A stretch of 64,000 nt of DNA, taken from Candidatus Eiseniibacteriota bacterium. Its GTDB lineage: Bacteria > Desulfobacterota > Binatia > DP-6. Position 1 is the first letter of the stretch. The number at the start of each line of letters is the position of its first letter. Under the pieces are notes generated by a model. It was not told where the DNA came from, ran no database searches, and worked only from the letters and a program-made list of their open reading frames with translations. Both the position numbers and the translations under genes were made by a program. Positions 3,166 to 32,463 of this stretch are shown here, one piece after another. The stretch lies in NCBI GenBank assembly GCA_035577985.1, contig DATJZY010000025.1, positions 66,229 through 130,228 on the forward strand, read 5' to 3'.

Positions 3166-5157
3166 TCAACGGGCGCGGCTCGCGGCGTCCTTGAGCAGCT
3201 GGTCGATCGCCGTGGCGCAGTCGGGGCCGATGGAACCCTTGCGACCCGCCTTGCGCGCCGACTTCGCGGCCTTCTTCAGCTTGCCGCGCGACTTCGCGAG
3301 CAGGCGCTTCCGCGCCTTCGCGGCGGCCGCAGCCTGCGCCTTCTCGAGCACGGTCCGCGCGGCGTCGACGCGAGCCCCGATCGCCGCCGGAATGCTGTCG
3401 CTCTTGCACGCCGCCGGCGGGTAGCCGCGCAGCACGCACAGCGCGCCGTCCGCGCCGATCGCCGGGCAGGCGACGGTGAGCGAGGCGGTCGCGGTTGCCG
3501 AGCTCGCACTCCCGTCCGTGGCCGCGAACGTGAACGAGTCGTCGCCGTCGAATCCGGCAGCCGGCGTGTACGCGACGGCTCCCGACGCCTCGTCGATCGA
3601 TTCGAGGGTGCCGTGCATGGGGGCGGCCACGATCGAGCGCGTGATGGGATCCCCGTTGGGGTCGTTGCACGACAACGCGATCATCGTGCGCGTCCCGTTC
3701 GGGACGAGCGAGGATACGTTCGCGCAGATCGGCGCGACCTCCCGGGAGAACGCCGACACCGCACTGCTGCCATCCGCCCGGGTGTAGGCGGTTGCGTTGT
3801 CGGCACTCACGACGAGGGATGACACGGCGATCAGAGCGACCCCGTCGGCGCACTGCCCGCCCGTTCCAGTCTCGCTGACACAGCCGGCGGTACCCGGGAG
3901 TTGCGAGATCTTGCCGTCGGCGGGATCGCGGGAGAATACGGCCACGGCGCTGACTGGATCGATCGAGACGACGTAGACGCTCAGCCCGTCGGGGGAGACC
4001 ACGGCCCAGTTCGCGCGAGCGAGCGCCTTCCCCGTCGCGCATCCCGGCGGCGCCGGCGCTTCGGCGATGCAGCCGGCGGGACCGGCGAGCTGCGTCAGCG
4101 TACCGGCTGCCGGGTCGCGGGCGAAGATCGTGACCGTACCGGAGCCTCCCCCGGAGGCCACGTATGCGTTGGCGCCATCGGGGCTGATCCCGACGTGGGC
4201 TACGAAGGTGAGACCGTTGCCTTCGGAACATGCTCCGCCGCTGCCGCTCGCGCTGACGCAGCCGGCGGTGCCGGGGAGCTGCGTGAGCGCGCCGAGCGGA
4301 GCGTCGCGCGAGAAGATCGCGATCGCGCCGTTGTTGTTCGAGGCGACGTACGCGAACTTGTCGTCGGGGCTGAGCGTGATCTGCCGGGGACCGGCGAGCG
4401 CGACGCCGTCGGCACAGCTCCCCGCCGTGCCGCCGGTGTGGTCGAAGCCATCTTCGCTGACGCAGCCGTCGGTGCCGGAAAGCTGGGTCAGCGCGCCGGT
4501 CGATGCGTCGCGCGAGAACGCGGCGATCGAGTTGCCGAAGGACGAGGCGACGTAGACGTTCGCGCCGTCGGCGCTGACCTGCACCGAACGAACACCGCTG
4601 AGCCCCCTGCCGTCGACGCAGCTTCCCGCTGTGCCTCCGGGGTGATCGAAGCCATCCTCGCTGATGCAGCCGCTGGTCCCGGGAAGCTGTGTCAGCGCGC
4701 CGGTCGACGTGTCGCGCGAGAACGCCGCGACCGAATCGCTGTTCTGGCCAGTGAGGTAGACGTTCCGACCGTCGGCGCTGACCGCCACGCTGGTCGCGCC
4801 CTCCAGGCCTCTGCCGGCCGTGCAGCCAGGCGTCGCCATCGGGTCCTCTGCGACGCAACCGGCGCTACCCGGTAGCTGTGTGAGGACGCCGCTCGCCGGG
4901 TCGCGCGACAGGACGGCCACGCCATGCTGGGATGCGCTGTACACGTTCTTGCCGTCGGGGCTGAGGGCAATCACGCCGTAGCCGTCGGCGGCGAGGGCGT
5001 TGCCGTCGGTGCAGGCGCCGCCCGTGCCATCGTCGGAGATGCAGGCGTCGAGGCCGGAGAGCTGGGTGAGAGCGCCGAGCGGGGGCGGAATCGCCGAGGC
5101 GCGTCCCGCGAGCGCGGTGAGGGCGGCCCAAAGGAGGACGGTGCTTGCGTTCTTCAT
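3166..5157 (-). CDS. Secreted beta-propeller repeat protein (YVTN/lactonase-like repeats) with Lys-rich C-terminal helical tail
   Basis: Start chosen at MKNASTVLLWAALTALAG (signal peptide); at least 7 repeats of VSxDGxNVYVxS...AFSRDxxTGALTQLxGTxGC; C-terminal KARKRLLAKSRGKLKKAAK tail. Confidence 0.7.
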   Translation of the reverse strand: MKNASTVLLWAALTALAGRASAIPPPLGALTQLSGLDACISDDGTGGACTDGNALAADGYGVIALSPDGKNVYSASQHGVAVLSRDPASGVLTQLPGSAGCVAEDPMATPGCTAGRGLEGATSVAVSADGRNVYLTGQNSDSVAAFSRDTSTGALTQLPGTSGCISEDGFDHPGGTAGSCVDGRGLSGVRSVQVSADGANVYVASSFGNSIAAFSRDASTGALTQLSGTDGCVSEDGFDHTGGTAGSCADGVALAGPRQITLSPDDKFAYVASNNNGAIAIFSRDAPLGALTQLPGTAGCVSASGSGGACSEGNGLTFVAHVGISPDGANAYVASGGGSGTVTIFARDPAAGTLTQLAGPAGCIAEAPAPPGCATGKALARANWAVVSPDGLSVYVVSIDPVSAVAVFSRDPADGKISQLPGTAGCVSETGTGGQCADGVALIAVSSLVVSADNATAYTRADGSSAVSAFSREVAPICANVSSLVPNGTRTMIALSCNDPNGDPITRSIVAAPMHGTLESIDEASGAVAYTPAAGFDGDDSFTFAATDGSASSATATASLTVACPAIGADGALCVLRGYPPAACKSDSIPAAIGARVDAARTVLEKAQAAAAAKARKRLLAKSRGKLKKAAKSARKAGRKGSIGPDCATAIDQLLKDAASRAR

Positions 5158-5301
5158 TCGGTCCATCACCCGCGGGCGCGCGATGCTGCCACGGTGCGAT
5201 ATCCGCCACAAGACTCCGTCCACGATCTTTCGCATTCGCACGCGCACGCACCAAATGCCCGGCTGGGATGAGCTTCAACCGCGTGGCAGATTCGCCCGCC
5301 G

Positions 5302-12926: not shown

Positions 12927-12929
12927 CGC

Positions 12930-13056: not shown

Positions 13057-14190
13057 ATGGTCTCGGCCGACATCGTCATGAAGCGACCGTTCCTTCGAGA
13101 TCGCATGTTCCAGGTCGTGCTCGCCATGGGCGCGGCCGTGGGCCTCCACCTGGGCCTCCTCCACCTCTTCCTGTGGAAGACGGCGGCCGCCCCGCTCACC
13201 TTCTTCGTGTGCGCGCTCGTCTTCGCGTCCGTCGCCTACGCGCTGCAGCGATGGATCTTCCCGGCGCTCTCACGGCCGTCCTTCGCTGCCCAGGTGACGC
13301 TCGAGGTCGTGGCCGCGACGATCGCCTTCGGCGCGCTGTCGGTGGTGGTCGCATCGACGGTGGCGTACCTCCTGGGCGCGCCGCCGCTCTTCGGCAGCCC
13401 CACCGGAGCGGAGGAGCACATCCTCATCACCCCGGCGATGCGGCAGGCTGGCGTCCGCATGTACGCCCTCATGCCGATCGTGCCCACCGTCATCTCGTCG
13501 GTCATCGGCTATCACCTCGTCTGGCGGCGTATGGAGACGCTGCAGACCCGGGCGCAGGAGCTGACCGAGCTCGCCGCGACCGCACAGCTCGCCGCCCTGC
13601 GGGCGCAGATCAATCCGCACTTCCTGTTCAACAGTCTCAACTCGATCGCGCAGCTGATCCACGTCGACCCCGCCAAGGCCGAGGCGTGCGTCGAGCGGCT
13701 GGCCGAGATCTTCCGCTACCTCCTGCACCGCGCCGAGCAGGAGTTCGTGCCGCTCGCGGACGAGCTCCAGATGACGACGGCCTACCTCGAGATCGAGCGC
13801 GCGCGGTTCGACGAACGGCTGCGGGTCGAGACGCGCGTCGATCCGCGGAGCCTGCGGCGCCTGATTCCGAACCTGATCCTGCAGCCCCTGGTCGAGAACG
13901 CGGTGAAGCACGGCCTCTCGCGCAAGGTCGGGCCCGGCACGCTGCGCATCGACGCGCTGGTCGAAGACGAGATGCTGACGCTCGTCATCGGCGACGACGG
14001 GCTCGGCATGTCGTCCTCGGTGCTCGATTCGGTGTACGACCGCGGCGTCGGCCTGCGCAACCTGCGCGCCCGCCTCGAGCGCCTCTATGGGCCGTCGCAC
14101 CTGCCCGAGATCACGAGCACGCCCGGCGGCGGCACTCGCGTGTGCTTGCGCCTGCCCACGCGCGACGCCCTGCCACGCCAGGCGGCATGA
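13057..14190 (+). CDS. LytS/YehU-family sensor histidine kinase (5TM + His_kinase + HATPase_c)
   Basis: N-terminal TM helices; INPHFLFNSLNSIAQL (LytS-type H box region); LQPLVENAVKHG and GxGLxN ATPase motifs. Confidence 0.85.
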   Translation: MVSADIVMKRPFLRDRMFQVVLAMGAAVGLHLGLLHLFLWKTAAAPLTFFVCALVFASVAYALQRWIFPALSRPSFAAQVTLEVVAATIAFGALSVVVASTVAYLLGAPPLFGSPTGAEEHILITPAMRQAGVRMYALMPIVPTVISSVIGYHLVWRRMETLQTRAQELTELAATAQLAALRAQINPHFLFNSLNSIAQLIHVDPAKAEACVERLAEIFRYLLHRAEQEFVPLADELQMTTAYLEIERARFDERLRVETRVDPRSLRRLIPNLILQPLVENAVKHGLSRKVGPGTLRIDALVEDEMLTLVIGDDGLGMSSSVLDSVYDRGVGLRNLRARLERLYGPSHLPEITSTPGGGTRVCLRLPTRDALPRQAA

Positions 14191-14948
14191 CATCGATCCG
14201 CACGCTCGTCGTCGACGACGAGAAGCTCGCGCGCGATCGCCTCATCGGGTTTCTCGCCAAGGTCGACGGGGTGGAGGTGATCGGGCAGGCGATCAACGGC
14301 GTCGAGGCCGTCGAACGCATCGAGCAGGACCAGCCGGACCTGGTGTTCCTCGACGTCCAGATGCCCGGCATGGACGGCTTCGACGTGCTGAAGTCGCTCT
14401 CGCGCCCCGCGCCGCAGGTGGTGTTCGCGACGGCCTACGACGAGTACGCGATCCGCGCCTTCGAGGTCCAGGCGGTCGACTACCTCCTGAAGCCGTTCGC
14501 CCGCGCGCGCGTCGAAGAAGCGGTGGGCCGCGTCCGGACGCGCCTCGATCACGGCACGCCCGGGCTCGACGTCGAAGCGGTGCTGAAGCGCCTCGAGGAC
14601 AGCCGCAAGGACCACGTGCGGCAGGTGCCGGTGCACGCGGGTAAGCGCATCCTGCTGCTCCCGGTGGAAGACGTCCTGTGGTTCGGCGTCGAGTATCGCC
14701 TGGTCTACGCGCACACGGCCGAGCGCGCCTACATGACCAACCTCACGCTGCGCGAGCTCGAGGAGCGCCTCGACCCCGACGCGTTCTTCCGGGCCCACAA
14801 GGCGAGCCTCGTGAACATGCGCCAGGTGCGCGAGATCGTCCCCTGGTTCGGTGGTCGCTACAAGCTCGTCATGAAGGACGGCGCGGCAAGCGAGGTCGCC
14901 GTCAGCCGTGCCCAGGCGCGGGAGCTGCGCACGAAGCTGCGCTGGTGA
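14187..14948 (+). CDS. LytTR/AlgR-family response regulator (REC + LytTR DNA-binding domain)
   Basis: LVVDDE...FLDVQMPGMDGF receiver; C-terminal LytTR domain (VPVHAGKRILLLPVEDVLWF...); ATGA overlap with the kinase stop. Confidence 0.85.
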   Translation: MTSIRTLVVDDEKLARDRLIGFLAKVDGVEVIGQAINGVEAVERIEQDQPDLVFLDVQMPGMDGFDVLKSLSRPAPQVVFATAYDEYAIRAFEVQAVDYLLKPFARARVEEAVGRVRTRLDHGTPGLDVEAVLKRLEDSRKDHVRQVPVHAGKRILLLPVEDVLWFGVEYRLVYAHTAERAYMTNLTLRELEERLDPDAFFRAHKASLVNMRQVREIVPWFGGRYKLVMKDGAASEVAVSRAQARELRTKLRW

Positions 14949-14968
14949 TCGATGGCACCGCGGCGAGG

Positions 14969-14997
14969 TTGACAGGTTTCGGCACCGTCCGTAGACC
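14969..14997 (+). promoter_or_regulatory. Candidate sigma-70-type promoter TTGACA-N17-TAGACC upstream of the VWA-exbBD operon (weak -10)
   Basis: TTGACA at 14969-14974, TAGACC at 14992-14997; flanked by GGCACCG direct repeats (14954, 14981). Confidence 0.25.
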
Positions 14998-15014
14998 CCA
15001 TCGGTCCCGCCTCG

Positions 15015-16265
15015 ATGTCGCCCCCCCCTCCTCCGGTCTCGTCCTTCCATCCCCGGGCCGCCCGCAGCGCCGTCGCGCTCCTGGTCTCGATCCTCCTCCA
15101 CGTCGTCTTCGTCGCGCTCGTGATCTTCGACGTGACGGGGCTCGGCGGCGGGTTCGGCATCGGCGTCGGTCCGGGCTTCGGCATCGGCAGCGGCGGCGGT
15201 CCCGGCCTCGGCGAACAGCAGCGGCGCGAGATCTTCTCGCTCGAGGACATCCCGGACCTCGTGCGGCCGCAGGAGCCGAACTCCGAGCAGGAGCTGACCG
15301 CATTGCTGGCGCCGCGCGAAGCCGAGCGCATCCTCGTCCCGCAGCCGGCGAAGCCCAAGACGGCGACGTCGACCAACGCGCCCGTCATCCAGTTCGCCCG
15401 ACCCGTGAAGCCGATCGGCGCCGGCACCGATCTCGGCGCGCGCCTCGCGGCGGCGGGCGCGGGCTCGGGCGGCATCGGCCTCGGCGGCGGAGGCGGTGGT
15501 CTCGGCTGGTCGCTCGGCAGCTCGTTCGGAAAATACGTCGGGGGGCTCCGCAAGGTCGGCCTCGACGTCGCCATCGTCGTCGACTCGACCGGCAGCATGC
15601 AGAACATCATCGACGACCTGAAGCGCCGCCTGCAGGACCTGGTGCGCACCATGCAGCGCCTCGTCCCGACGGCGCGCATCGGCGCCGTCGCCTATCGCGA
15701 CCGCACCGACGACAAGGTCGCGACCGCACCGCGGCAGAGCGAGGATTTCCTCGTGAAGTGGAGCGACCTCACCTACAACGCCTCGAAGGTGCAGTCCTTC
15801 CTCGGCGGCATCGTCGCCGAGGGCGGCGGCGACTGGAAGGAAGCCGTGAAGGAAGGGCTCGAGACGGCGATGAAGCAGCTCAAGTGGCGCCCCGATGCCA
15901 AGAAGGTGATCATCATCGTCGGCAGCTCACCGCCGCACGACGAAGATCTCCCCGCCATCCGGAACCTCATCGCCGACTGGCGCGCGCGCAACGGCTACGT
16001 GAGCACGATCGACGTCAGCTATCCGCTCCACGCCGAGCACGAGCGCAAGCTCAATCGCTGGCTCTACGGCGAGGAGCCGAAGGAGATCTCGCCGCTGCCC
16101 GAGTTCTACAAGGAGCTGCAGCAGAGCTTCCACGAGATCTCGAAGCAGGGCGGCGGCACGGACGTCGCGCTGGGCGAGGACGCGGCGCTGGTGCGCAACG
16201 TGCTCGTGCTGGCATTCGGGTCGCAGTGGGAGAAAGAGGTGGGCCGCGTCGCACGCGGCCGGTAA
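15015..16265 (+). CDS. Membrane-anchored von Willebrand factor A (VWA) domain protein with TonB-like N-terminal architecture
   Basis: Single N-terminal TM helix ([20 protein letters not shown]), Gly-rich then Pro/Lys-rich linker, C-terminal VWA with MIDAS DxSxS (VVDSTGSM). Confidence 0.75.
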
Positions 16266-16290
16266 CGACTATGCTACGAGGAGCACCGTA

Positions 16291-16950
16291 ATGGAGAACG
16301 CCGTCAACCCCGTGGACCTCAGCTTCTGGACCTTGATCCAGCAGGGCGCGATCTCGACCTATCCCCTGCTCATCTGCTCGGTCATCGTGGTGGCCGTCGC
16401 GCTCGAACGCGCCTGGGCGCTGCGCGGCGCGCTCGCCGCGGCGCCCGCGCTCGCGGCGCGCATTGCGCCGACGCTCGCCAACGGCGACGCGAAGAACGCG
16501 ATCGCGACGCTGGCGCAGGCCCCCGCCACCGCTGCGCGACGCGTCTTCGCCGACATCCTGGCCGAGCCGGGGCTCGAACGGACCGAGCTCGAGCGGATCG
16601 CCGACGAACGCCAGTTCGAGGAGGCCCAGGAGGCCGGATCCTATCTCTGGATCCTCGGCACGATCGGATCGTCGGCGCCGTTCATCGGCCTGTTCGGTAC
16701 GGTGATGGGCATCATCCGCTCGTTCCACAGCATGGCGATCGCCGGCACCGGCGGCTTCGGCGTCGTCGCGGGCGGCATCTCCGAGGCGCTGATCGCAACC
16801 GCGCTCGGGCTCGCGGTCGGCATCCTCGCGGTCGTCCTCTACAACTACTTCCAGGCGCGCGTGGAACGCATCGACGCGGCCCTGCAGATCGGCAGCGCTC
16901 GGGTCGTGGAAGCGCTCATGGCCGGACGGAGAGCGCATGGCGTTCGGTAA
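16291..16950 (+). CDS. MotA/TolQ/ExbB-family proton-channel protein
   Basis: 219 aa, three TM helices, conserved TolQ/ExbB C-terminal TM2-TM3 block ([24 protein letters not shown]...[17 protein letters not shown]); GAGGAG RBS. Confidence 0.85.
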
Positions 16951-17341
16951 GGCCCATCGCCGCGGCCAGATCGTCGCCGAGATCAACGTCACGCCGCTGA
17001 CGGACGTATTCCTGGTCCTCCTCATCATCTTCATGATCACCACCTCGGCCATGGTGAAGCCCGCGGCCGACGTGAACCTGCCCGAGACCGCCGAGGACAA
17101 CCAGGAGACCCAGGGCGTCATGGTGACCATGACGCCGAGCAAGCAGATCTACGTCGGCGATCGCTCGGTCGAGGGCGACGACGCGGCGGTCGTGAGCGCG
17201 CTCAAGGACGCGCTCGCGCGCGCCAAGCAGAAGGTCGTGATCCTCGCCGGCGACCGGCAGGTCGTGCTCGGCGAGGTCGTTCGCGTGCTCGGGCTTGCCA
17301 AGGAGGCGGGCGCGTCCGGCTTCGCCCTGGCCTCGGAGTGA
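16937..17341 (+). CDS. ExbD/TolR-family biopolymer transport protein
   Basis: 134 aa; [19 protein letters not shown] signature TM; overlaps the ExbB stop. Confidence 0.85.
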
Positions 17342-19479
17342 TCGCCCGCGCCTTCTGCCTGGCGACCCTGATCGTCCTCGGGGTCGCGGCCGCCCTGCGC
17401 GCCGAGAGCCTCGGCGAGCTCGAGCGCCGGGCGAAGGCGTTCTACGACCTGCTCGAGCGCGGGCAGAAGGAGCAGGCCGCCGCGATCTTCCCCGACCTGG
17501 AGAAGGCCCTCGCCTCGACGCTGGACGACCTGCAGGAGCGGCTCGATCGCATGCGCGACGAGGTGATGGAGCGCGACGGCGACATCGAAGCGCTCTACAA
17601 GGAATCGCGCTGGCGCGACCCGGAGATCGCATCGCTGGTCATCACCTATCATCTGGCGTGGGTCCGCTATCAGGGCGCGCAGCTCACGACCGACCAGCGC
17701 CGCAAGAATCAGCTCCTCGACAAGGCGGTCGAGGGCTTCTCGCAGTTCCTGGTCGTGAACGAGGTTCCCGAGGTGTACGCCGAGAGCCAGTACGGGCGCG
17801 GCCTCGCGTTCCTGGACCTCGGCAACTACGCGCAGGCGCGCGACGACCTCGAGGCCGCCGCGAAGGATCCGCGCACTGCCGCCAAGGCGCGATCGGCGCT
17901 CGCCGAGCTGGCGCGACGGCAGGGCGGCAAGGCGAGCAAGGAGCCGGCTCCCGACGATCCCGAGACGCTCCTCGCGCAGCTCGGCGACGCGCTGCCGAAG
18001 GTGGCGAGCAACGCGGCGCTGGAGAAGGACACGACGGCCCTCGCCCGCGGTCTCGCGGCCCGCGGCGGCGACTGGCCGAAGCGCGTCGACGGCACGATCG
18101 CGACCAAGCTCGGCAACGGCACCCCGAGCGGCGTCACGTCGAGCTACGGCCTTCTCCTCCTGGCCCAGCTCGCGATCGATCGTAATCGCTGCGCAGACGT
18201 CGCGCCGCTCGCCGACGCGGGCGGCGCGGTGAAGGACGCGACGCGCGCGCGCTATCGGCCGGAGCTGCTCTACCTCGACGCCGGCTGCCTCATGAACGCG
18301 GGGAAGACGCGCGAGGCCGCCCAGGCGTTCGAGGAGCTGCTGCGCGACTTCCCGGATGCGGCGCGCGCGCGCGACGCCGCCTACTACCGCTTCCGCGCGC
18401 TCGACGTCGCACGTGCGAGCGACGCGTCGCTCGCAGCCGCGTACGAGGACGCACTCACGACCTTTGCGACGCGCTTCCCGAAGGACGACGCGGTCGGCGA
18501 GGCGCGCTACCAGCTGGGCGAGCTCTTGCGCAGTCGCGGCGACTGTCCGAAGGCCGAGGCGGAGTACGCACACGTCACGGCCGGTCCGTTCGCGACGCGC
18601 GCGCGCCTGGGCGCGCTCGAATGCGCGGTGGGCGCGCTCGTAAAGGCCGGCAAGGACGCCCCGCCGGAGCAGCGCCGCGCGCTCCTCGAACGCCTGCGCG
18701 CCTTCGTGCGCGACGTGCCCGCCAAGGGCGCCGACGAACAGGCCGTCGCGCGCGCGGCCCTCATGGGCGGTCTCGTCGCGGCAGACGCGCGCCCACCCGA
18801 CTCCGCGGCGGTGGTCGAGTTCCTCGACAAGTACGAGACCCGGTTCCCGGCCGCGAAGGAATGGCACGCGACGGCGGTCCAACGGCGCCTCGTCGCGCGC
18901 GTGGCGCTCGGGCAGCTCGACGCCGCGGAGCGTGACCTCGACGCGTACCTCGCCGCCGGTCCCGAGGCCGACCGCCGGCGCGTGCTCGACGACCTCGGGC
19001 GCGCGCTCCAGAAGCAGCTCGACGACCCCGACGAGGCGAAGCGACGCGCGGCGCTCGCGCTCGCACGCAAGGTCTACGGCGCTCTGGTGGCGAGCGGCGG
19101 TGAGACCGCCGACCGCGTGGCGCTCGCCGACCTCGAGCTGCGCGGCGGCAACGCCGCCGACGCGCGGCGGAGCTACGACGAGGTGCTGGCGAAGGATCCG
19201 ACCTCGGCCGAGGCGATGCGCGGCGCCGCGCGGGCGGCGGCGGCGCTCGGCGATCGTGCGGGCGCGCTCGCGCGCTGGAAGCAGGTGGTCGAGACGAGCC
19301 CGACCGGCGGCACCGGCTGGTACGAAGCGCGCATCGCCCAGGTGAAGCTCTTCCTCGACGCCGGCCAGAAGGGCGAAGCGTGCGAGGTCGCGCGCCTGTC
19401 CATCGGCAAGTCGACCACCACGGGCGGCGATCAGCTCGACAAGCAGCTCCGGCAGATCGCGACCGCGTCGTGTCGCTGA
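17338..19479 (+). CDS. Periplasmic tetratricopeptide-repeat (TPR) protein, 713 aa
   Basis: Signal peptide ([22 protein letters not shown]); repeated A/L/Y/R-rich helical TPR-like units; GTG start overlapping the ExbD stop (GTGA). Confidence 0.7.
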   Translation: MIARAFCLATLIVLGVAAALRAESLGELERRAKAFYDLLERGQKEQAAAIFPDLEKALASTLDDLQERLDRMRDEVMERDGDIEALYKESRWRDPEIASLVITYHLAWVRYQGAQLTTDQRRKNQLLDKAVEGFSQFLVVNEVPEVYAESQYGRGLAFLDLGNYAQARDDLEAAAKDPRTAAKARSALAELARRQGGKASKEPAPDDPETLLAQLGDALPKVASNAALEKDTTALARGLAARGGDWPKRVDGTIATKLGNGTPSGVTSSYGLLLLAQLAIDRNRCADVAPLADAGGAVKDATRARYRPELLYLDAGCLMNAGKTREAAQAFEELLRDFPDAARARDAAYYRFRALDVARASDASLAAAYEDALTTFATRFPKDDAVGEARYQLGELLRSRGDCPKAEAEYAHVTAGPFATRARLGALECAVGALVKAGKDAPPEQRRALLERLRAFVRDVPAKGADEQAVARAALMGGLVAADARPPDSAAVVEFLDKYETRFPAAKEWHATAVQRRLVARVALGQLDAAERDLDAYLAAGPEADRRRVLDDLGRALQKQLDDPDEAKRRAALALARKVYGALVASGGETADRVALADLELRGGNAADARRSYDEVLAKDPTSAEAMRGAARAAAALGDRAGALARWKQVVETSPTGGTGWYEARIAQVKLFLDAGQKGEACEVARLSIGKSTTTGGDQLDKQLRQIATASCR

Positions 19480-23188: not shown

Positions 23189-23743
23189 ATGTCGACGTAT
23201 GGGCCCGTGGCCGCGCTGGCCCTCTCGACCTCCGCGGCCGTCATCCTTGCCACCGGTTGCGACCTTCGAAGCGATCGCATGCGACCGTCCGTCGGCCCCC
23301 CCGCCACGGGCCTCGGCGCGCACGTCGTTCGCACCGTCGAGGTCTCGTCGGCCCTCTCGATGCCGTCGCTGCGCGTGGTCACGCCGGAGATGCTGCGCGA
23401 CGTGCTGCAACGCGCCCTCACCGACGCCGGCGCGTACGGCGCCGGCGGCCGCTACGTGCTGCACACGAAGATCGTGAGGCTCGAGGGCGGCGGATCGGGC
23501 ATCGGCTTCAACCGCTACGCGCTCGTCGCGATCGACAATCGGCTCGTGGACGATCGCGATCCCGCTTGGAACTGGCACGACGAGGCGTCGGCGAGTCCGG
23601 GCATGCTCCCCATTCCCGGGCAGACGTTCGCCGGGATGGATGCGCAGCGCGAGGCGTTCGAGGCGGCGGTGAGCAACGTAGCCGGCCAGACCGCACGCGC
23701 CGTGCGTGACACGCTCGAGCGTCGATCCAAGGAGAGCCCATGA
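23189..23743 (+). CDS. Hypothetical lipoprotein
   Basis: Signal peptide with lipobox ILATGC; ATGA overlap with the following giant gene. Confidence 0.55.
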   Translation: MSTYGPVAALALSTSAAVILATGCDLRSDRMRPSVGPPATGLGAHVVRTVEVSSALSMPSLRVVTPEMLRDVLQRALTDAGAYGAGGRYVLHTKIVRLEGGGSGIGFNRYALVAIDNRLVDDRDPAWNWHDEASASPGMLPIPGQTFAGMDAQREAFEAAVSNVAGQTARAVRDTLERRSKESP

Positions 23744-26700
23744 CGAAACCCCTGTCGATCGCCGCGCTCTGGGTTGCCCTTCTCCTGCCGAGGCCGATCG
23801 TCGCCGCCACCATCACGGTCGCCACGACCGACGACACGAACGCGGTCGCCTGCACGCTGCGCGACGCGATCACGGCCGCCAACACCGACGCCGTGAGCGG
23901 CGCGTGCCCGGCCGGGGCCGGTGACGACACGATCGACCTCAGCGGTCTCGGCGGAACGATCCTGCTCGGAGCCGCGCTCCCCGGGATCACGACGAACATG
24001 ACCCTGCGTGGTCCGGGAGCGCACGTCCTCACCATCAGCGGACAGGACAGCGTGCAGGTCTTCGTCGTGACGGGCCCGACCGTCACGATCTCCGACGTGA
24101 CGATCGCGCACGGCCTCGCTGCCGGCTCTGGTCGGGGCGGCGGTGTCGAGACCCTCGCGGGCTCGGTCGCCCTCACGCTGTCGCGCGTCGTGATCACACT
24201 CTCTCAGGGCTTCAACGGCGGTGGGATCGCGAACGACGGGGGCGGAACCATGACGATCGTCGACAGCGCGATCGTCGGCAACACCACGACCGGCAACGCC
24301 GGCGCGGGCATCTTGAGCGCCCATTCTTCGACGCTCGTCCTCACCAACACGACCGTGGCCGGGAACACCAACACGGGATTGGACCGCGCGGGCGCGGGAC
24401 TCCTGCTCTCTCGTGGCACGGCGACGATCACCAACTGCACCTTCGCCAACAACGTTGGCACGAGCACGGGCGGGTGGGAGATCATGAACCTGGTCCCGAT
24501 GGAGGACCCCGTCGGTACCCTGCATTTGAAGAACACGATCGTCGCCAACCAGTCCGGCCACGGCTGCCTCGGGCCGATCACGTCGGGCGGCCACAACCTC
24601 TCCGACGACACGACCTGCGCGCTCGCGGGCCCCGGCGATCTCCAGGGCGTCGCCGCGGGCCTCAGCGCACTCGGCGACCACGGCGGTCCGACGCCGACTC
24701 TGGCGCTCGTCGCCGGGAGCCCGGCGATCGACGCCGGAGATGCGGCCGCGTGTCCCCCCGCCGACCAGCGCGGGGTCGGCCGGCCGGTCGACGGCGACGC
24801 CAACGGAAGGGCCGGCTGCGACATCGGCGCCTACGAGGTCGGCTGCGGCGACGGGATCCCTCCGAACAGCCGGTGCGCGCCCGACGCGAATCCATGTACC
24901 GACGACGTGTGCGACGCCCTCGGCGCGTGCCAGCATCCGACTGCCGCGACCGGAGCGCCCTGCGACGATGGGGACCACTGCACGCTCGGCGACACCTGCG
25001 CGAGCGGCGTCTGCTCGGCCGGCACGACCCCGGGGTGCCCGGCAGTGGGAAGCCTCACCTACCGCACCTGCATCACCGGCGAGCTCGAGACGGGCCCGGC
25101 GGGAACGAACGCGTGCACGCAGATCGCCGGCGCCACCTCGGTCGCCCAGCACTCGGGTCTCGACAACCTGCGATCGGTGACCGAGAGCGCGGACGGGATC
25201 TCGCTGTACGTCACGTCCGGCAACGACGACGCCGTCGCACGCTTCGACCGGGATCCCACGACCGGAGCGCTCGCGTACCAGGGGTGCATCTCGGGCGCGA
25301 TCGAGACCGGCCCCACGGGCACGAGCGCCTGCGCGCAGATCCCGAGCGCCACCACGGCCGGACAGAGCTCCGGGCTCGATTTGCCGCAGGCGATCGCGCT
25401 CAGCCCGGACGGGAAGTCGCTCTACACCGCGTCCCTCACGGACGACGCGGTCGCCCGTTTCGACCGGGACACCGCGACGGGTGCCCTCACCTACCGCGAC
25501 TGCCTCACCGGGAAGTCCGAGGCGAACGACACCGCCTGTACCAAGATCCCGAGCGCGAGCTCGTCGGGCATCGATTCGGGTCTCGACTCCCTGTCGGCTC
25601 TGGTGGTGAGCACGGACGGAAAGTCGCTCTACACGGTCTCGCGCGACGACGACGCCGTCGCGCGCTTCGATCGCGACACGGCGACCGGCGCCCTCACCTA
25701 CCAGGGCTGCATCACCGGCGAGACCGAGAGCGGGCCCGCCGGCACGGGCGCGTGTGTGCAGATCGGGAGCGCCGCCTCGGGGGGCGCGAACTCCGGGCTC
25801 GATGACCTCTTCTCGCTGGCAGTCAGCGCGGACGGGAAGTCCCTGTACGCCGTCTCCCTATTGGACGATGGGGTCGCTCGCTTCGCCCGCGATCCGGGGG
25901 CGGGCGCCCTCGTCTACCAGGGCTGCATCAGCGGCGAGATCGAGAGCGGCCCCACCGGCACCGGCGCCTGCGCCCAGATCGGCGCCGCGGCGTCGTCGGG
26001 CGTCAACTCCGGGCTCGATGCGCTCTACGCGATCGTCGTCAGCCCCGACGACAAGTCGGTCTACACGGTCTCGCAGGAGGACGACGCCGTCGACCGCTTC
26101 GACCGCGATCCGGGAAACGGCGCGCTCACCTACCAGGGCTGCATCACCGGCGAGACCGAGAGCGGTCCGGCAATCCCGATCCCAGGCACCGGTGCGTGCG
26201 TCGAGATCGCGAGCGCCACCTCGCGCGGAACGAACTCGGGACTCGACAAGCTGCGCTCGATGGCGGCGAGCCCGGACGGGACGTCGCTCTACGTCGCCTC
26301 GCCGCAGGACGACACGATCGCGCACTTCGTGCGTGACCCCATGAGCGGTGCGCTCACCTACGAGAGCTGCATCACGGCGGAGGCAGAGACCGGCCCTACG
26401 GGGACGAACGCCTGTGCCCAGATCCCGAGCGCAACCTCGTTCGGCACGAACTCCGGCGTCGACAATCCGCAGGCATTCCTCGTGAGCCCCGTCGGGCTCC
26501 AGCTCTACACGAGCTCCGGGAACGACGCGGCCGTGGCGCGCTTCGACCGCGAGCCCGAGCCGCCGCCCACGACGACGACCACGACGCTGCCCGGGCAGGC
26601 GATCCGCGGCAAGCTCCTCCTCATCGTCGACGGCACCGACGCCAAGAAGCGCAAGATCGTCTTCAAGGCGAAGGATGCGAGCATCGACACCAGCGCGGGC

Positions 26701-27108
26701 AGCGGCATCGATCCGGTCACGGACGGGGCCGTGTTCCAGGTCTTCAACGATGCGGGCACGGGGGACTCGGCCTGCTTCGATCTTCCCGCGGCCGGATGGA
26801 CGAGGAAGGGCAAGCCGGCCAAGCCGACGTTCCGCTATCGGGACAAGAAGTTCGCGATGGGTCCCTGCAGCCTCACGACCGTCCAGGACGCCAAGTCGCT
26901 CGTGGTCGTGTGTCAGGCGAAGGTGCGGCCGATCGACTACTCGCTCGACCAGCCCGCACAGCAGCGGGTGGGCGTGCGCTTTCGCAGCGGCGGTACCGAG
27001 TACTGCACGGTCTTCGGGGGCAAGGTCCTGAAGGACAAGCAGAAGACAAAGTTCCGGGCGAAGAACGCGCCGGCGGCGTGTCCGGCGGCGCCCGTCGCCT
27101 GTCCCTGA
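23740..27108 (+). CDS. Giant secreted multidomain protein: right-handed beta-helix (ending CDIGAYE) + Myxococcus-type Cys-rich repeat + about 10 beta-propeller repeats + Thr-rich linker + C-terminal domain
   Basis: Signal peptide MTKPLSIAALWVALLLPRPIVA; GGGIANDGGGTMTIVDSAIVGNTTTGNAGAGI beta-helix repeats; PDANPCTDDVCDALGAC; repeats SPDGKSLYxxSxxDDAVARFDRDxxTGALTYQGCITGExESGPxGTGAC. Confidence 0.75.
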   Translation: MTKPLSIAALWVALLLPRPIVAATITVATTDDTNAVACTLRDAITAANTDAVSGACPAGAGDDTIDLSGLGGTILLGAALPGITTNMTLRGPGAHVLTISGQDSVQVFVVTGPTVTISDVTIAHGLAAGSGRGGGVETLAGSVALTLSRVVITLSQGFNGGGIANDGGGTMTIVDSAIVGNTTTGNAGAGILSAHSSTLVLTNTTVAGNTNTGLDRAGAGLLLSRGTATITNCTFANNVGTSTGGWEIMNLVPMEDPVGTLHLKNTIVANQSGHGCLGPITSGGHNLSDDTTCALAGPGDLQGVAAGLSALGDHGGPTPTLALVAGSPAIDAGDAAACPPADQRGVGRPVDGDANGRAGCDIGAYEVGCGDGIPPNSRCAPDANPCTDDVCDALGACQHPTAATGAPCDDGDHCTLGDTCASGVCSAGTTPGCPAVGSLTYRTCITGELETGPAGTNACTQIAGATSVAQHSGLDNLRSVTESADGISLYVTSGNDDAVARFDRDPTTGALAYQGCISGAIETGPTGTSACAQIPSATTAGQSSGLDLPQAIALSPDGKSLYTASLTDDAVARFDRDTATGALTYRDCLTGKSEANDTACTKIPSASSSGIDSGLDSLSALVVSTDGKSLYTVSRDDDAVARFDRDTATGALTYQGCITGETESGPAGTGACVQIGSAASGGANSGLDDLFSLAVSADGKSLYAVSLLDDGVARFARDPGAGALVYQGCISGEIESGPTGTGACAQIGAAASSGVNSGLDALYAIVVSPDDKSVYTVSQEDDAVDRFDRDPGNGALTYQGCITGETESGPAIPIPGTGACVEIASATSRGTNSGLDKLRSMAASPDGTSLYVASPQDDTIAHFVRDPMSGALTYESCITAEAETGPTGTNACAQIPSATSFGTNSGVDNPQAFLVSPVGLQLYTSSGNDAAVARFDREPEPPPTTTTTTLPGQAIRGKLLLIVDGTDAKKRKIVFKAKDASIDTSAGSGIDPVTDGAVFQVFNDAGTGDSACFDLPAAGWTRKGKPAKPTFRYRDKKFAMGPCSLTTVQDAKSLVVVCQAKVRPIDYSLDQPAQQRVGVRFRSGGTEYCTVFGGKVLKDKQKTKFRAKNAPAACPAAPVACP

Positions 27109-27186
27109 GCTGCGCGCAGGGCCTCGCGATCCTCACCGCGCGCCTGCCCTTTCTGCTTGCCCGCGAGGGGGATCCGGATAGGCTGT

Positions 27187-28059
27187 ATGGAGGTGAGACG
27201 TCGCCCCGGAATCGCGCTGTCCCTCATCGCTCTCGCCGCCGTGGCTCTCGGGCCGCGGCGGGCGGCCGCCGCGCCGATCCAGCCGGCGCTGCCGGCCTAC
27301 GCGATTCTCGGGGTCGCGAACGTGATGCTGCGCCCGCAGGTGCGCGTGCAGTCGGGCTCCGTCGCGTCCGCGGGCGGTGAGCTGCGCCTCGCGGCGCACG
27401 TCACCGTTTCCGGCAGCGCCGTCGCCGACGTCGTGCGCATGGGCAACGGCGCGAAGGTCGATCCGATCTTCTGTCGCCTGGTGACGGGCGCCGTGTTCGG
27501 GCGCGGCGTGGTCGGCGGCCCGTCGGTTCAGGGCGCGACCGTACCCGCGTGCCAGCCGCTCGTAGCGCCGGTCGTCGACCCGGCGCTCCTCGCGCCCGTG
27601 GCCGTGACGCCGGGAACGACGGACGTGCGCGTGCCGGCGCGCACCGGCACGGCGCCGTATCCGCCGGGCAGCTACGGGGCGATCGTCGTCGGTCCCGGCT
27701 CGCTCCTGCAGCTCGCGGGTGGCGACTTCCAGGTGAGATCCATCACGATCGCCCCCCGGGGGCGAGTCGTGTGCGCCGACCTGTGCCGCATCGGCGTGCT
27801 CGAGAGCGTCGTCCTGCGGCGGGGCGCGCAGATCGGCGCGGCGGCCCCGATGCGGGCGCACAACGCGCGCATCGACATCGCGGGCGGCTCCGACGTGCCG
27901 GTCTTCGTCGCGGGCGCGCAGAGCACCGTCGCCGCGACCATCTTCGCCCCTGCGGGCGACATCGTGCTCGGACGCGCCGGGTCGTTTCGCGGCGCGTTCG
28001 TCGGTCGTACCGTGAAGGTGAAGCCACGCGCCACCGTGCGCGGCGACAGCGCGCTCTGA
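27187..28059 (+). CDS. Hypothetical secreted protein
   Basis: MEVRRRPGIALSLIALAAVALGPRRAAAAP signal peptide; Ala/Gly/Val-rich beta-type sequence; no assignable family. Confidence 0.5.
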   Translation: MEVRRRPGIALSLIALAAVALGPRRAAAAPIQPALPAYAILGVANVMLRPQVRVQSGSVASAGGELRLAAHVTVSGSAVADVVRMGNGAKVDPIFCRLVTGAVFGRGVVGGPSVQGATVPACQPLVAPVVDPALLAPVAVTPGTTDVRVPARTGTAPYPPGSYGAIVVGPGSLLQLAGGDFQVRSITIAPRGRVVCADLCRIGVLESVVLRRGAQIGAAAPMRAHNARIDIAGGSDVPVFVAGAQSTVAATIFAPAGDIVLGRAGSFRGAFVGRTVKVKPRATVRGDSAL

Positions 28060-28099: not shown

Positions 28100-30184
28100 G
28101 TGCGCGTCGGGCTCCGAGCCGTTGCCGCGGCTGCCGCCGGCTACGCGATCGTCGCGTACTGGACGTTCCGGCCGACGCCGTCCGGCCTCGCGCACACGAT
28201 CCCCGCGTTCTCGGGGCTCGCCGGCGATGCGCTGTTCCATACCTGGGGGACGAACCACGTCTCCCGCACGATCCTCGTCGATCCGCTCCACCTCTTCGAA
28301 GCCGGCATCTTCCATCCGGCCAGGCACACGCTCGCCTACGGCGACCACATGATCGGCGAAGGGCTCCTCGGCCTGCCGATCTGGCTCGCGACCGGCAATC
28401 CGCTGCTCGAGTTCAACCTGCTGACGCTCGCCTCCTTCGTGCTCTGCGCGACGACGGCGTTCCGGTATCGTCGCGAGACGGGCGGCGGCCTCGCAGGCGC
28501 CGTCGCGACGGGGCTCGTGTTCTCGTTCACGCCGTTTCGGCTGAACTCGCCGATGTGGCCCCAGGTGCTGCTCACGTTCGCGATGCCGCTCGCGGTCGCC
28601 GCGTGGCTGCGCTGGGTGCAGGGCGGACGCGGGCGCGACCTCGCTGCGTGGGTCGGCTGGTGGGTCGTGCACTCGCTCATGGGCATGTACCTCGCCTTCT
28701 ACTTCGCGGTCGTGATGGGGGTCCTGGCGCTCGCGGCGATCGCGATCGCGCCCGCCGGCGGCCGCGCGCGCATCGCGCGCGGAACGGTGATCGCAGGTCT
28801 CGGAACCGCCGCGCTGCTCGCGCCGACCCTGTGGCCGTACGTCGTCCTGCGGGCAACGCAGAGCCACGTCCGTACGGCAGGTCTCGGGACGCAGTGGACC
28901 TTCCTTCTGCCGGGGCCGGGGACCTTGAGCGGCACGCTCGCCGGCTTCGACGGCCGGATCGGCGACGCGATCGTGTCCTTCGGACCCGGCCTGCTCACGA
29001 GTGCGCTCGTCGCGGCCGGCCTCGTGGTCGCGCGCCGGCGTGCGGCGACGTCCTGGGAGCGGTTCGTCTGGGTCGCGAACGTGCTCGGGCTCGCGATCGC
29101 CCTCGCGATCATGTTCGTGCCGATCGAGCTGCAGCTCCGCCTGCCCGGCTTCGACATGATGCGGATGACGAACCGCGCCTTCCACGTCGGCCTCCTGTTC
29201 GCCGCCTGGTTCGCCGGGGCTGCCGTCGACGCCGTCGTCGCGCTCGGGCCGGCGCGCGTGCCGCGCGTCGCCATCGCGACGATTCTCGTGGCGTTGCTCG
29301 CCCTCGACGCCGGCGCCGCGCCGACCGAGCGCCGGCGCATGCCGGTCGCGTCGGACCTGCCGCCAATCTACGAGGCCGTCCGCGGGCTGCCCGATCGCGT
29401 GCTGTACGAGCGCACCGACGAGATCGAGGGCGCAGCGCGCGCCCTCTACTTCTCCATCTTCCACGGCAAGGCGCTGGTGAACGGGTACAGCGGCTTCACC
29501 AGCCCCGGCCCCACGTTCGCGGTCCAGCGCCTGTTCGAGTTCCCCGCCGAACCCGCGCGCGCGCTCCTCGCGACACTCGGCGTGCACGCCGTCCTCGTCC
29601 GCGACATCTCGCCCGCCGCGCTCGATCGGCGTCTGGCGGCGCTGCCCAGCACGGGTACGCAGATCGTCGCCCGCGACGGTGCCGCCGCGCTCGTGCGTGT
29701 CGACGAGCCGGCGCCGAGCCCGCCGCCGGCGGCCGTCCCGCTCGCGCGCGCGGGACGGGCGCTCAGCGCAAGCGGCAACCGGGAGGCCCTCGCCGCCCTC
29801 GAGGACGACGACCCGCGAACCGTCTGGCAGCTCGCGGTCGAGCGCGGCGCCGTCCCGTCGCTCACGATCGACCTCGGCGTCGCCCGCATGGTGGCCGGCG
29901 TGCGCTGCGTCGGCGGCTCGCTCGACTCCGTCGGCGTCTACCTCGCCGACGTCGAGACGTCGGTCGACGGCACCGAGTGGACGCCGACCGGCGCGCGCTT
30001 CGACCCCGACTCGCTCCCGGCGCTGTTCGCGCATCCGGCGGACGTCCGCTGGTGGGACGCGCGCTTCACGCCCCGTCCCGCCCGCTGGGTGCGGCTGACG
30101 AACGCCCGCCTCGGCAACCGCACCGGCACGTGGGAGCTGGCCGAGGTGGACGTGTTGACGCTCGCGGAGGGATCGTCCCGGTGA
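28100..30184 (+). CDS. Polytopic membrane protein, GT-C-like (YfhO/PMT-like topology) with C-terminal discoidin (F5/8 type C)-like domain
   Basis: More than 10 predicted TM helices in the N-terminal 400 aa with a first-loop acidic motif (AYGDHMIGEG); C-terminal DDDPRTVWQ...WVRL discoidin-like region. Confidence 0.5.
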   Translation: MRVGLRAVAAAAAGYAIVAYWTFRPTPSGLAHTIPAFSGLAGDALFHTWGTNHVSRTILVDPLHLFEAGIFHPARHTLAYGDHMIGEGLLGLPIWLATGNPLLEFNLLTLASFVLCATTAFRYRRETGGGLAGAVATGLVFSFTPFRLNSPMWPQVLLTFAMPLAVAAWLRWVQGGRGRDLAAWVGWWVVHSLMGMYLAFYFAVVMGVLALAAIAIAPAGGRARIARGTVIAGLGTAALLAPTLWPYVVLRATQSHVRTAGLGTQWTFLLPGPGTLSGTLAGFDGRIGDAIVSFGPGLLTSALVAAGLVVARRRAATSWERFVWVANVLGLAIALAIMFVPIELQLRLPGFDMMRMTNRAFHVGLLFAAWFAGAAVDAVVALGPARVPRVAIATILVALLALDAGAAPTERRRMPVASDLPPIYEAVRGLPDRVLYERTDEIEGAARALYFSIFHGKALVNGYSGFTSPGPTFAVQRLFEFPAEPARALLATLGVHAVLVRDISPAALDRRLAALPSTGTQIVARDGAAALVRVDEPAPSPPPAAVPLARAGRALSASGNREALAALEDDDPRTVWQLAVERGAVPSLTIDLGVARMVAGVRCVGGSLDSVGVYLADVETSVDGTEWTPTGARFDPDSLPALFAHPADVRWWDARFTPRPARWVRLTNARLGNRTGTWELAEVDVLTLAEGSSR

Positions 30185-32463
30185 CGAGGGGCGCGACCGC
30201 ACGCGCCGTCGTCGTCGACTGCGCGGCGTACGTCGCGATCTTCGGGGTCCTCGCGGCGCCGTGGCTCGCCCGCGCCGCGACGGCGCTGCCGAGCGACATC
30301 GCGTCGCGCGACGCGTGGTTGATCCTCTGGGTGCTCGACTGGGGCACCCACGCGCTCGCGACGTCGCCCGCCAAGCTCTTCGACCCACCCGTCAACTATC
30401 CGGCCCTGGCGCAGCTCGCCGGCTCCGAGCACTTCCTCGCGTGGCAGATCCTCTTCGCGCCGCTGCGCGTGCTCACGGGTAGCGCCTTCGTCGCGGCGAA
30501 TCTCACCGCGTGGGTGTCGTATCCCCTCGCCGCGCTCGCCATGGAGCGCTGCCTCGTCGGCTTCGGCGTCGCGCGTGCGCCCGCGTTCGCGCTGGGCTTC
30601 GTCTACGGCGTCGGATGGGGCTCCATGGGGACGCTCCACGTACTGCAGTACTCGCACGTGTGCCTGCCGCTCGTCGTCCTGGCGCTCCACGCCCTGCGCC
30701 GGCGCCCCGATCCCCCTCGCACGCTGGCCGTGTTCGGCGCGGTCGGGTTCGCCCTGTTCTCCTCGTACCACATGGCCGTCTACGTGGGGCTCGTCGCGCC
30801 CGTGTGGACCGCCGCCGAGCTCCTCCGACCGGGCCCCGGGCGCTGGCGGTTCGCCGCGCTCGCGGCCGGCGCGGGTCTCGCGGCGCTCGCGCTCCTGTTG
30901 TGGGTGTCGGGCCCCTATCTCACGCGACCCGAGACGGCGGGCGACACGGAGCTGGTGGAGAGCGAGGCGGGCACGGCGCATCTCGCGGGGGCGCCGCCGC
31001 TGCTCGTGCGGGAGTCGTCCTCGGTGCCCGAGCTCGTCGCGAGCATCGCGGGTTGCGTCGCCGGTGCGGGCCATCTCCACCCGTGCATGCGGGCGGTCGG
31101 CGAGGCGCCGTTCGCCTGGCACCTCGCGCTGCCAAACCTCGTCCTGGGCTCGCTCGCGCTGGTCGGGATCGTGAGCGCGTTCGTGGCCCGCCGCCGTCGT
31201 CTCGAGGTCGTGGCGGCGCTCGCCGTCGCGTGCCTCGGTGCGCTCGCCGTCGAACCGCTCGCGGTCCACGTGCTCGGCTTCGACGTTCCGCTGCTCGCCA
31301 CCTGGCTCACGTGGACACCGGCGCGCTTCATCCGCGCGTCGTACCGCGCGCTCGTCATGACGTTCTTCGGCACGTCACTGGTCGCGGGAATCGGGCTCGA
31401 CGCGGCATGGTCGCGGCTCGGCGCGCGGCGCGCCGCCGTACCGGCGCTGATCGTGTGCCTGCTCGTCGCCGTGCGGCTCGCGCCGCTGCCACCCGGCGCC
31501 GCGGCCGAACGCCGGCTCGACGGCGTGACCCGCTGGTCGCGCCTGGCACCGGCGAAGTACCTGACCACGCCCGCGCTCGACCGCGACGCGGACGCGTATC
31601 GCGCGGTCGCGGCGTTCGTCGCGCGCGAAGGGTCCGGGCCTCTTCTCGAATGGCCGAGCGGCATCGGAGATCCGGCAGCCACGGTCGCACAGATGATCCA
31701 TCGCCAACCGAGCATCCGGTTCTTCACGGGCTACGTGCCGCTGCACCTCCTGCTCGTCGAGAGCTTGATCGGGCGCCTCCCGGATACGGACGCGCTCGAC
31801 GACCTGGTCGACATGACCGGGCTGCGGTGGATCCTCGTCCGCCCGCCGTATCAGTGGCGCCAGCCCGCGCGGTACGCCGCCGATCTCGATCGGCTGGTGC
31901 ACAGCCCGCGCGTGCGCCGCTCCCTCCTCATGGACCCGTTCATCCTGGTCGAGCTCGATCCCAGCTCGCGACACCCGGCCTGGTTCCGGGCCGTCGCGAG
32001 CGGCGTGGAGCGCGACCATACGGTCCTCGGTACCCCGGTCGTCATGGTACGAAGCGGTCGCGCGGGGGTCGTCGCCGGGGCGCGCGGCACGGTGTCCGTC
32101 GGGCGGCGGCTCCCGGTCACCGTCGAGGTCACGAACCGCGGCAGTGCCGGGTGGCCGGCGGCGCTGCCGGGGCGACCCGTCGACGGCGTGCTCACCGTGC
32201 GCCTGTTCGCGCGCTGGGTCGGGGCCGACGGTCACAGCGAGGACCTGCCGGCCGAGCGCCTGCGGCGAGACGTGCCCGCGGGCGAGACCCTGCGCCAGAC
32301 AGTGATGCTGCCGGCGCCGCGCGAGCCCGGCAGCTATCGGCTCGAGGTCGGCGTCGAGCAGGTGGGCGGCGCCGACCTGTCGTCGCCGCAGAATCCGATC
32401 AGCATCCCCGTCGAGGTCGAGGCCCGCCGCGACGGCGCTGGTGCGAGCGACGAGCCGGGCTAG
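30181..32463 (+). CDS. Polytopic membrane protein, tandem paralog of 28100..30184 (GT-C-like)
   Basis: GTG 30181 overlapping the upstream TGA (GTGA); similar hydrophobic architecture; part of track ORF 28555..32463, whose 5' portion is an out-of-gene extension. Confidence 0.45.
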   Translation: MTRGATARAVVVDCAAYVAIFGVLAAPWLARAATALPSDIASRDAWLILWVLDWGTHALATSPAKLFDPPVNYPALAQLAGSEHFLAWQILFAPLRVLTGSAFVAANLTAWVSYPLAALAMERCLVGFGVARAPAFALGFVYGVGWGSMGTLHVLQYSHVCLPLVVLALHALRRRPDPPRTLAVFGAVGFALFSSYHMAVYVGLVAPVWTAAELLRPGPGRWRFAALAAGAGLAALALLLWVSGPYLTRPETAGDTELVESEAGTAHLAGAPPLLVRESSSVPELVASIAGCVAGAGHLHPCMRAVGEAPFAWHLALPNLVLGSLALVGIVSAFVARRRRLEVVAALAVACLGALAVEPLAVHVLGFDVPLLATWLTWTPARFIRASYRALVMTFFGTSLVAGIGLDAAWSRLGARRAAVPALIVCLLVAVRLAPLPPGAAAERRLDGVTRWSRLAPAKYLTTPALDRDADAYRAVAAFVAREGSGPLLEWPSGIGDPAATVAQMIHRQPSIRFFTGYVPLHLLLVESLIGRLPDTDALDDLVDMTGLRWILVRPPYQWRQPARYAADLDRLVHSPRVRRSLLMDPFILVELDPSSRHPAWFRAVASGVERDHTVLGTPVVMVRSGRAGVVAGARGTVSVGRRLPVTVEVTNRGSAGWPAALPGRPVDGVLTVRLFARWVGADGHSEDLPAERLRRDVPAGETLRQTVMLPAPREPGSYRLEVGVEQVGGADLSSPQNPISIPVEVEARRDGAGASDEPG

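Follow-up and report, generated by a model that had tools for sequence, protein, structure and literature searches.

What kind of protein is made from a gene that carries a long internal repeat array, and does the array make that gene unstable? The question is raised by the gene at 23740..27108 (+ strand) of a 64,000 nucleotide stretch of contig DATJZY010000025.1, the whole of which is called the window below. According to the original prediction, the product of this gene is a secreted mosaic in which a beta-helix and a cysteine-rich segment are combined with propeller repeats, and its repeated DNA provides the means for copies to be gained or lost or for phase variation. The mosaic is backed by hidden Markov models (HMMs), by an AlphaFold2 (AF2) model and by Foldseek structure matches. 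The repeats are the blades of a propeller; they are old, diverged, fixed at seven in number and evolving independently, and they are no contingency locus. The protein ends in a C-terminal domain (CTD) that the earlier description overlooked, and the same domain ends hundreds of otherwise unrelated secreted proteins.

The gene and the architecture of its product

The window has a G+C content of about 71%, and as a consequence many spurious open reading frames (ORFs) overlap 23740..27108. The frame of the gene itself (1122 codons plus stop) was taken from the ORF list and has a coding-type codon bias, with a GC3 of 0.91 and a GC2 of 0.58. Public assemblies hold a nearly identical product, P0001, with four residue-level differences, and an ortholog, P0002, that is 89% identical. 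The ORF is a real gene, and it encodes a large, secreted, multi-module protein of the surface type in an uncultured soil or sediment bacterium.

The modules follow one another in the order signal peptide, CSLREA-like start with beta-helix and choice-of-anchor Q domain, a segment with ten cysteines, propeller, Pro/Thr linker and basic CTD. The signal peptide (amino acids 1–22, 23740..23805 (+), read by eye) has a basic n-region, the hydrophobic core LSIAALWVALLL and then PRPIVAA, with predicted cleavage after VAA; the signal-peptide-like N-terminus is thus MTKPLSIAALWVALLLPRPIVAA with T as the next residue, and the orthologs have equivalent N-termini. The mature protein has 37 cysteines, among which the paired cysteines of the blades are invariant, and we count this in favour of an extracellular protein. 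The Pro/Thr-rich linker (amino acids 939–952, 26554..26595 (+), PEPPPTTTTTTLPG; PEPPPTTTTTT), which was read from the translation, is far longer in the homologues P0008, P0009 and P0010. The isoelectric point (pI) of the protein outside the CTD is about 4.1–4.3, as against 9.75 for the CTD. The protein adds one more member to kinds of secreted modular protein that are already known, and in that respect the finding that was first flagged is itself ordinary.

A propeller of seven long blades

Seven tandem repeats of 69–76 amino acids, with a period of 216 nt, occupy 25069..26574 (+) and make up a beta-propeller of the lactonase family, as judged from dissection of the repeats, a blade HMM, Pfam family PF10282 and the AF2 model. 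The repeat units were set by anchoring on the motif [RH]F[DAV]R[DE] and on the leading cysteine; they start at nucleotides 25069, 25285, 25501, 25708, 25924, 26140 and 26368 (amino acids 444, 516, 588, 657, 729, 801 and 877). The HMM built from these units finds exactly seven matches in the protein. About ten repeats of about 85 amino acids had been predicted, and both numbers must be lowered accordingly to those given here.

The self-similarity that had been expected in a dot-plot of 24900..26600 is present: BLASTN of this region against itself gives six parallel diagonals, at offsets of 216, 432, 639, 855, 1071 and 1299 nt, each of them 68–70.6% identical, and Tandem Repeats Finder, at 70% matches, likewise gives a period of 216. 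The repeats had also been called nearly identical in DNA sequence. This holds for the pair of stretches on which that statement was based, 25650–25740 and 26080–26165, which are identical at 74 of 84 positions and share an exact run of 41 nt, but that pair is the best stretch of the array and is atypical; taken pairwise, the repeats are 60–75% identical in DNA and 48–68% identical in protein sequence. A conserved Cys-X(11–18)-Cys loop recurs in every blade together with an SG(L/V)D motif, and none of the 14 blade cysteines varies among nine homologues.

The assignment to beta-propellers is confirmed by PF10282, which matches above its gathering threshold (70.6 bits against 21.7, E 1.8e-19). 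The YVTN repeat, which had been named as a second model to search with, does not reach its threshold: TIGR02276 scores 21.3 bits against a cutoff of 27.85. The AF2 model of amino acids 431–949, built from an alignment of nine sequences, is all-beta, with seven groups of strands (pLDDT 84.9, pTM 0.89). Its nearest folds in the PDB by Foldseek are seven-bladed members of the 6-phosphogluconolactonase family, 4qrj, 3fgb, 1ri6, 3scy and 6nau (E 3e-18 to 5e-17) and 6igb (E 1.6e-15), with target TM values of 0.63–0.73. The solved lactonases match in the blade core motif only, at 12–19% identity, and the NCBIfam equivalog models for 6-phosphogluconolactonase score 11–19 bits against cutoffs of 370–500.

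With these PF10282 propellers (E. coli YbhE/Pgl 1ri6, Klebsiella Pgl 6nau, Bacteroides 4qrj, 3fgb and 3scy, and Pseudomonas PpgL 6igb) the present one shares its seven blades and the core motif S-x-D-G-x-x-L-Y ... F-x-x-D-x-x-T-G-x-L. It differs from them in that its blades are 69–76 rather than about 47 amino acids long (about 25 more), in that the Cys-X(11–18)-Cys loop and the SG(L/V)D motif have been added and are kept in all blades and in the orthologs, in that its blades are unusually alike and are embedded in an 1122 amino acid secreted mosaic, and in its low identity to solved members, no equivalog model being matched. A second point of comparison is given by nearly symmetric propellers, 2ymu (a "highly repetitive propeller structure") and the designed WRAP-T proteins 7bie and 7bid. 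These are also found by Foldseek (E about 1e-16), and their blades, like those studied here, lie close to one consensus; theirs, however, are blades of the WD40 type with far higher identity to one another, whereas DNA identity between the blades of the present protein has fallen to about 70%, and these blades have remained stable from a time before the orthologs separated.

Just before blade 1 lies the sequence GSLTYRT (amino acids 437–443), which is similar to the G-A-L-T-Y-Q-G ending absent from blade 7. The sequence register, together with the position of the first strand of the AF2 model at residues 9–18 of the modelled fragment, suggests that GSLTYRT may be the outer strand that closes blade 7, in the way in which propellers are usually closed, with a strand from the N-terminal side.

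The C-terminal domain

The CTD comprises amino acids 953–1122 (26596..27105 (+)). It is 170 amino acids long, all-beta in the model (pLDDT 80.5, pTM 0.82), has six conserved cysteines and terminates in ...CPxxPxxCP-COOH. It is strongly basic, with a net charge of +14 at a pI of 9.75, and the median pI of the family is about 9.0. No Pfam or NCBIfam model matches it at E≤10, whether it is searched alone or across 27 diverse CTDs, and this includes Por_Secre_tail and the other models for the CTDs of the type IX secretion system (T9SS). A profile of the domain finds no match among PDB sequences (best E 2.5), and Foldseek finds no meaningful neighbour of the model in the PDB (best E 0.02, query TM ≤0.41).

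The domain is nevertheless common. An exhaustive HMMER search recovered 1275 cluster representatives at E≤1e-3, 443 of them at E≤1e-10, and a word-indexed profile search added few members. It reaches the last residue of the protein in 39 of the 42 members that were fetched, and 28 of the 34 members that start with methionine have signal-peptide-like N-termini. Its partner domains include DUF4215, Lactonase, Peptidase_M64, M36, M10, S9, GH44, Esterase_PHB, PD40, TSP_3 and others. One member is from a Candidatus Binatia bacterium, and the named sources span Eisenbacteria and Binatia. Within the window the HMM of the CTD matches the product of 23740..27108 alone. Weaker matches adjoin orthologs of the gene at two other loci, at 177–3395 (+) of L007 and at 12660–15434 (+) and 18248–19102 (+) of L008, and these extra genes indicate that CTD-bearing genes are multi-copy and sometimes clustered.

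The CTDs of T9SS cargoes are alike by functional analogy only, in that they too are conserved all-beta domains with which many unrelated Sec-exported cargoes end; none of their HMMs matches the present domain, which is double their size, strongly basic and equipped with six conserved cysteines. The lineage to which NCBI's label assigns the organism, Candidatus Eisenbacteria, is in a group generally placed with the FCB superphylum. We tentatively raise the idea that the CTD defines a large sorting or surface-anchoring family through which hundreds of secreted proteins could be exported or retained in Eisenbacteria- and Binatia-like bacteria, that is, a new "choice of anchor", possibly with machinery of its own that has gone unrecognised. 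At the least the domain deserves a family model. Were it indeed to serve for tethering or as a tag for export, it would delineate the proteins that these organisms secrete or display at their surface, and would point to an undescribed pathway.

The N-terminal modules

The region after the signal peptide, amino acids 23–367 (23806..24840 (+)), contains a CSLREA-like start, a right-handed beta-helix and a choice-of-anchor Q domain. The predicted beta-helix is borne out by PF13229, which matches amino acids 99–240 above its gathering threshold (30.6 bits against 25.9, E 3.1e-7), and choice_anchor_Q NF041518 matches amino acids 307–367 (74 bits against a cutoff of 25, E 8.5e-21). The CDIGAYE at which the beta-helix had been said to end is found at amino acid 360, inside the latter match. 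CSLREA TIGR04214 reaches 17.6 bits against a cutoff of 25 over amino acids 30–48, around a C-T-L-R-D-A-I motif at amino acids 38–44. The module has no sequence relative in the PDB at E≤1. The N-terminal 370 amino acids belong to the widespread CSLREA/choice-of-anchor Q class; among the matches listed, more than 100 cover only this region (18–43% of the query), and many of these N-terminal-only matches bear the name CSLREA or choice-of-anchor Q. The present protein is like them in its NF041518 match and its C-T-L-R-D-A-I motif, and differs in that TIGR04214 remains below cutoff and in that its C-terminus is a 170 amino acid domain for which there has been no model, with no recognised sorting signal.

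The segment that follows, amino acids 368–443 (24841..25068 (+)), was defined by its cysteine positions and has 10 cysteines in 76 residues. The cysteine-rich motif that had been reported is present, as C-APDANPC-TDDVC from amino acid 379. Its description as "Myxococcus-type" is not sustained: the Myxococcus repeat models TIGR02232 and PF13948 do not match amino acids 361–447 at E≤10 in Pfam and NCBIfam, and five flanking proteins are identical to proteins of an NCBI Candidatus Eisenbacteria metagenome-assembled genome (MAG; HXJ33105–HXJ33137, from a 138.6-kb contig), not to those of Myxococcota, so the label fits neither the repeat nor the organism. No NCBIfam model matches the segment at E≤10, and Dicty_CTDC PF00526 is below threshold (18.6 bits against 27, amino acids 382–399). 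In tblastn against GTDB genomes this segment is the only part of the protein with matches, which are of 42–63% and lie in Myxococcales and in delta-proteobacterial MAGs. It resembles the Myxococcus repeat (TIGR02232/PF13948 DUF4215) and the Dictyostelium CTDC repeat as a short, disulfide-rich, Asp-rich spacer of secreted proteins, although the profiles of neither recognise it at their thresholds; DUF4215 is present in other CTD-bearing proteins.

Exchange of modules and the paralog in the window

A 609 amino acid metagenome protein, P0131, aligns with amino acids 12–437 (56% identity) and 953–1122 (62% identity) of the present protein and lacks amino acids 438–952. It is a version without propeller, in which the beta-helix and Cys-rich module is fused directly to the CTD, and since exactly the region from 438 to 952 is missing, the propeller was lost as a block. 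In P0008, P0009, P0010 and P0135, on the other hand, the same propeller stands behind a different N-terminal module. These proteins show that the beta-helix/Cys-rich module, the propeller and the CTD are shuffled as three independent cassettes.

A paralog lies at 3166..5247 (– strand) of the window. It encodes a seven-blade propeller with the Cys loops (PF10282, E 1e-21), a Big_9/Cadherin_5 domain (Big_9, E 5.9e-13) and a Lys-rich, apparently helical tail; it lacks the CTD, and the CTD HMM is negative on its product. That the two genes have a repeat family in common, as had been proposed, is clear at the protein level: the blade HMM finds 7 copies in the paralog (E 9e-40), and BLASTP aligns the two proteins at 34% identity (E 3e-39). 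The similarity that a DNA dot-plot between the two genes had been expected to reveal is by contrast marginal: the longest stretch, at about 70%, has 102 nt, and the longest exact one 18 nt. We note that the Lys-rich tail of the paralog resembles the tail of P0010 and looks like a C-terminal module used in place of the CTD.

Possible functions

We consider it probable that the product of 23740..27108 is a modular, Sec-exported binding protein that is retained at the cell surface or in the matrix, with the CTD as its tether or sorting tag. The protein, of a bacterium that NCBI labels Candidatus Eisenbacteria, would be exported by the Sec route as a modular extracellular protein; its acidic beta-helix and propeller would bind an extracellular polymer or a surface ligand, much as adhesins and lectins do, and the basic CTD would either retain it on the anionic envelope of the cell, or on the matrix, or mark it for export or attachment. 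The role given to the CTD is suggested by the presence of this same domain at the very end of hundreds of secreted proteins that are otherwise unrelated, among them proteases, esterases, glycosidases and repeat proteins.

Several points weigh against this reading. The signal peptide was judged by eye only, and the extracellular location of the protein is deduced. The disulfides, the face of the propeller on which the Cys loops would lie and the closure of blade 7 are likewise deductions. The binding role is argued from fold class, charge and blade symmetry and not from an identified site, and there are enzymes, too, with the lactonase fold and with the beta-helix fold. The part assigned to the CTD as tether or sorting tag is argued from position and cargo diversity alone. 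The neighbourhood is uninformative, in that neighbours are conserved only among close relatives and are different at distant orthologs. Literature on choice-of-anchor/CSLREA proteins and on Eisenbacteria contained nothing that bears on this protein.

A possible, though not the favoured, alternative is that the CTD is a cargo tag for a dedicated outer membrane export or attachment pathway, analogous to the T9SS CTDs or to "choice-of-anchor" sorting signals, in which case the rest of the protein would be just one cargo. The strict position at the extreme C-terminus, with its constant ...CPxxPxxCP end, the hundreds of unrelated Sec-exported cargoes, the proximity of several CTD-bearing genes to one another in L007 and L008, the "choice-of-anchor" family membership of the N-terminal module and the named sources in two candidate lineages, Eisenbacteria and Binatia, would all agree with such a tag. 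However, no machinery was identified (no search aimed at T9SS genes was made, and none came to notice in the window), and the T9SS, PEP-CTERM and MYXO-CTERM models are all unmatched; at 170 amino acids, with three probable disulfides, the domain exceeds known sorting tags in size and complexity, and it is internal in 3 of the 42 members.

The main rival to a binding role for the propeller and helix is an enzymatic one, in which the propeller would hydrolyse or isomerise a lactone or sugar derivative, or the beta-helix would be a polysaccharide lyase or hydrolase, and the CTD would be a substrate-binding module of the kind of carbohydrate-binding modules (CBMs). We regard this as rather unlikely. 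PF10282 is over threshold, the nearest structures include true 6-phosphogluconolactonases and the periplasmic gluconolactonase PpgL, the orthologs are named 6-phosphogluconolactonase by JGI, and the CTD is joined, as CBMs often are, to many hydrolases (GH44, PHB-depolymerase esterase, and M36 and M64 proteases). Yet the likeness to solved lactonases is limited to the structural blade motif, the best NCBIfam lactonase equivalog reaches 18.8 bits against 370, and the N-terminal module is without a solved or enzymatic relative by sequence. Seven blades so near to one consensus would be more usual for a binding scaffold than for an asymmetric active site, and CBMs are not normally confined to the extreme C-terminus, where the CTD is found in all but three of the members fetched.

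Stability of the repeat array

The blade HMM finds seven units in each of the four orthologous genes that were recovered as loci (L004/L005, L006, L007 and L008), whose identity to the present gene ranges from 62% to 99.7%. Motif spacing is consistent with seven in the other full-length homologues as well, down to 57% identity (P0006) and with different flanking modules.

Site patterns in four-sequence comparisons with P0002, the 89% ortholog, tell whether blades have evolved separately or together. Sites were scored as orthologous in pattern if a difference between blades is common to both genomes, and as concerted if blades agree within a genome and differ between genomes; there are 1022 of the former and 9 of the latter. 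The 1022 sites at which the two genomes have the same blade difference mean that the blades diverged before the split, and by a rough estimate nine is about the number of concerted-pattern sites expected from parallel substitution alone. At closer range, the gene on ENA contig L006 (10001–13366), which carries P0001 and is 99.7% identical, differs from the present one by 7 substitutions and one 3-bp indel, none of them in 25069–26574. The indel deletes a Ser of the beta-helix; clustering of the changes is seen in the CTD (26950–26994).

The proposal that these tandem DNA repeats are a contingency locus, in which blade number changes by slipped-strand mispairing or unequal recombination, is thus very improbable: the array is a genuine tandem one with a 216-nt period, it contains the exact 41-nt repeat (at 25693 and 26125; P about 5e-4 under codon usage alone), and both P0002 copies of that stretch have the same synonymous ACC>ACG change, but its copies have diverged to around 70% DNA identity with no exact repeat longer than 41 nt, seven blades are present in every ortholog and in the paralog in the window, concerted-pattern sites are so few, two strain-level assemblies have no differences in the repeats, closure of a propeller needs a fixed number of blades, and the propeller, when missing, is missing as a whole cassette.

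Gene conversion between blades was considered as well, on account of the 41-nt repeat and the parallel synonymous change, and was rejected; the four-sequence test, with its 9 against 1022 sites, does not support it.

Neighbouring genes

Immediately upstream, a 184 amino acid ORF at 23189–23743 (+), called as 154 amino acids by NCBI, has a lipoprotein-like N-terminus (...VILATGC) and overlaps the ATG of 23740..27108 by 4 nt. It has no family match in Pfam or NCBIfam. It is also present in L006, and is missing at the locus of the 89% ortholog (L004/L005), where the flanking genes are 63 nt apart. Downstream lie a gene for a DUF7305 protein at 27157–28059 (+), a gene for a 694 amino acid multi-pass membrane protein with a discoidin (F5/8 type C) domain at 28100–30184 (+), and one for a 760 amino acid membrane protein with no family match at 30181–32463 (+). 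The DUF7305 and discoidin genes also adjoin the 89% ortholog, all three downstream genes are present in L006, and none of them is found at the distant orthologs. A conserved neighbourhood was thus considered as a clue to function and set aside, the DUF7305 and discoidin neighbours being common to close relatives only.

Scans for promoters and terminators and for tRNA genes found nothing. Farther away in the window, the 629 amino acid ORF at 54922–56811 (–) shows the codon bias of a coding sequence, and Pfam gives no match for it at E≤1e-5. Two genes for GAF-domain sigma-54 activators, at 7700–9373 (–) and 10984–12510 (+), flank a thiolase-like gene, and the region from about 13030 to 19479 contains a LytTR two-component pair and a VWA/ExbB/ExbD/TPR cluster.

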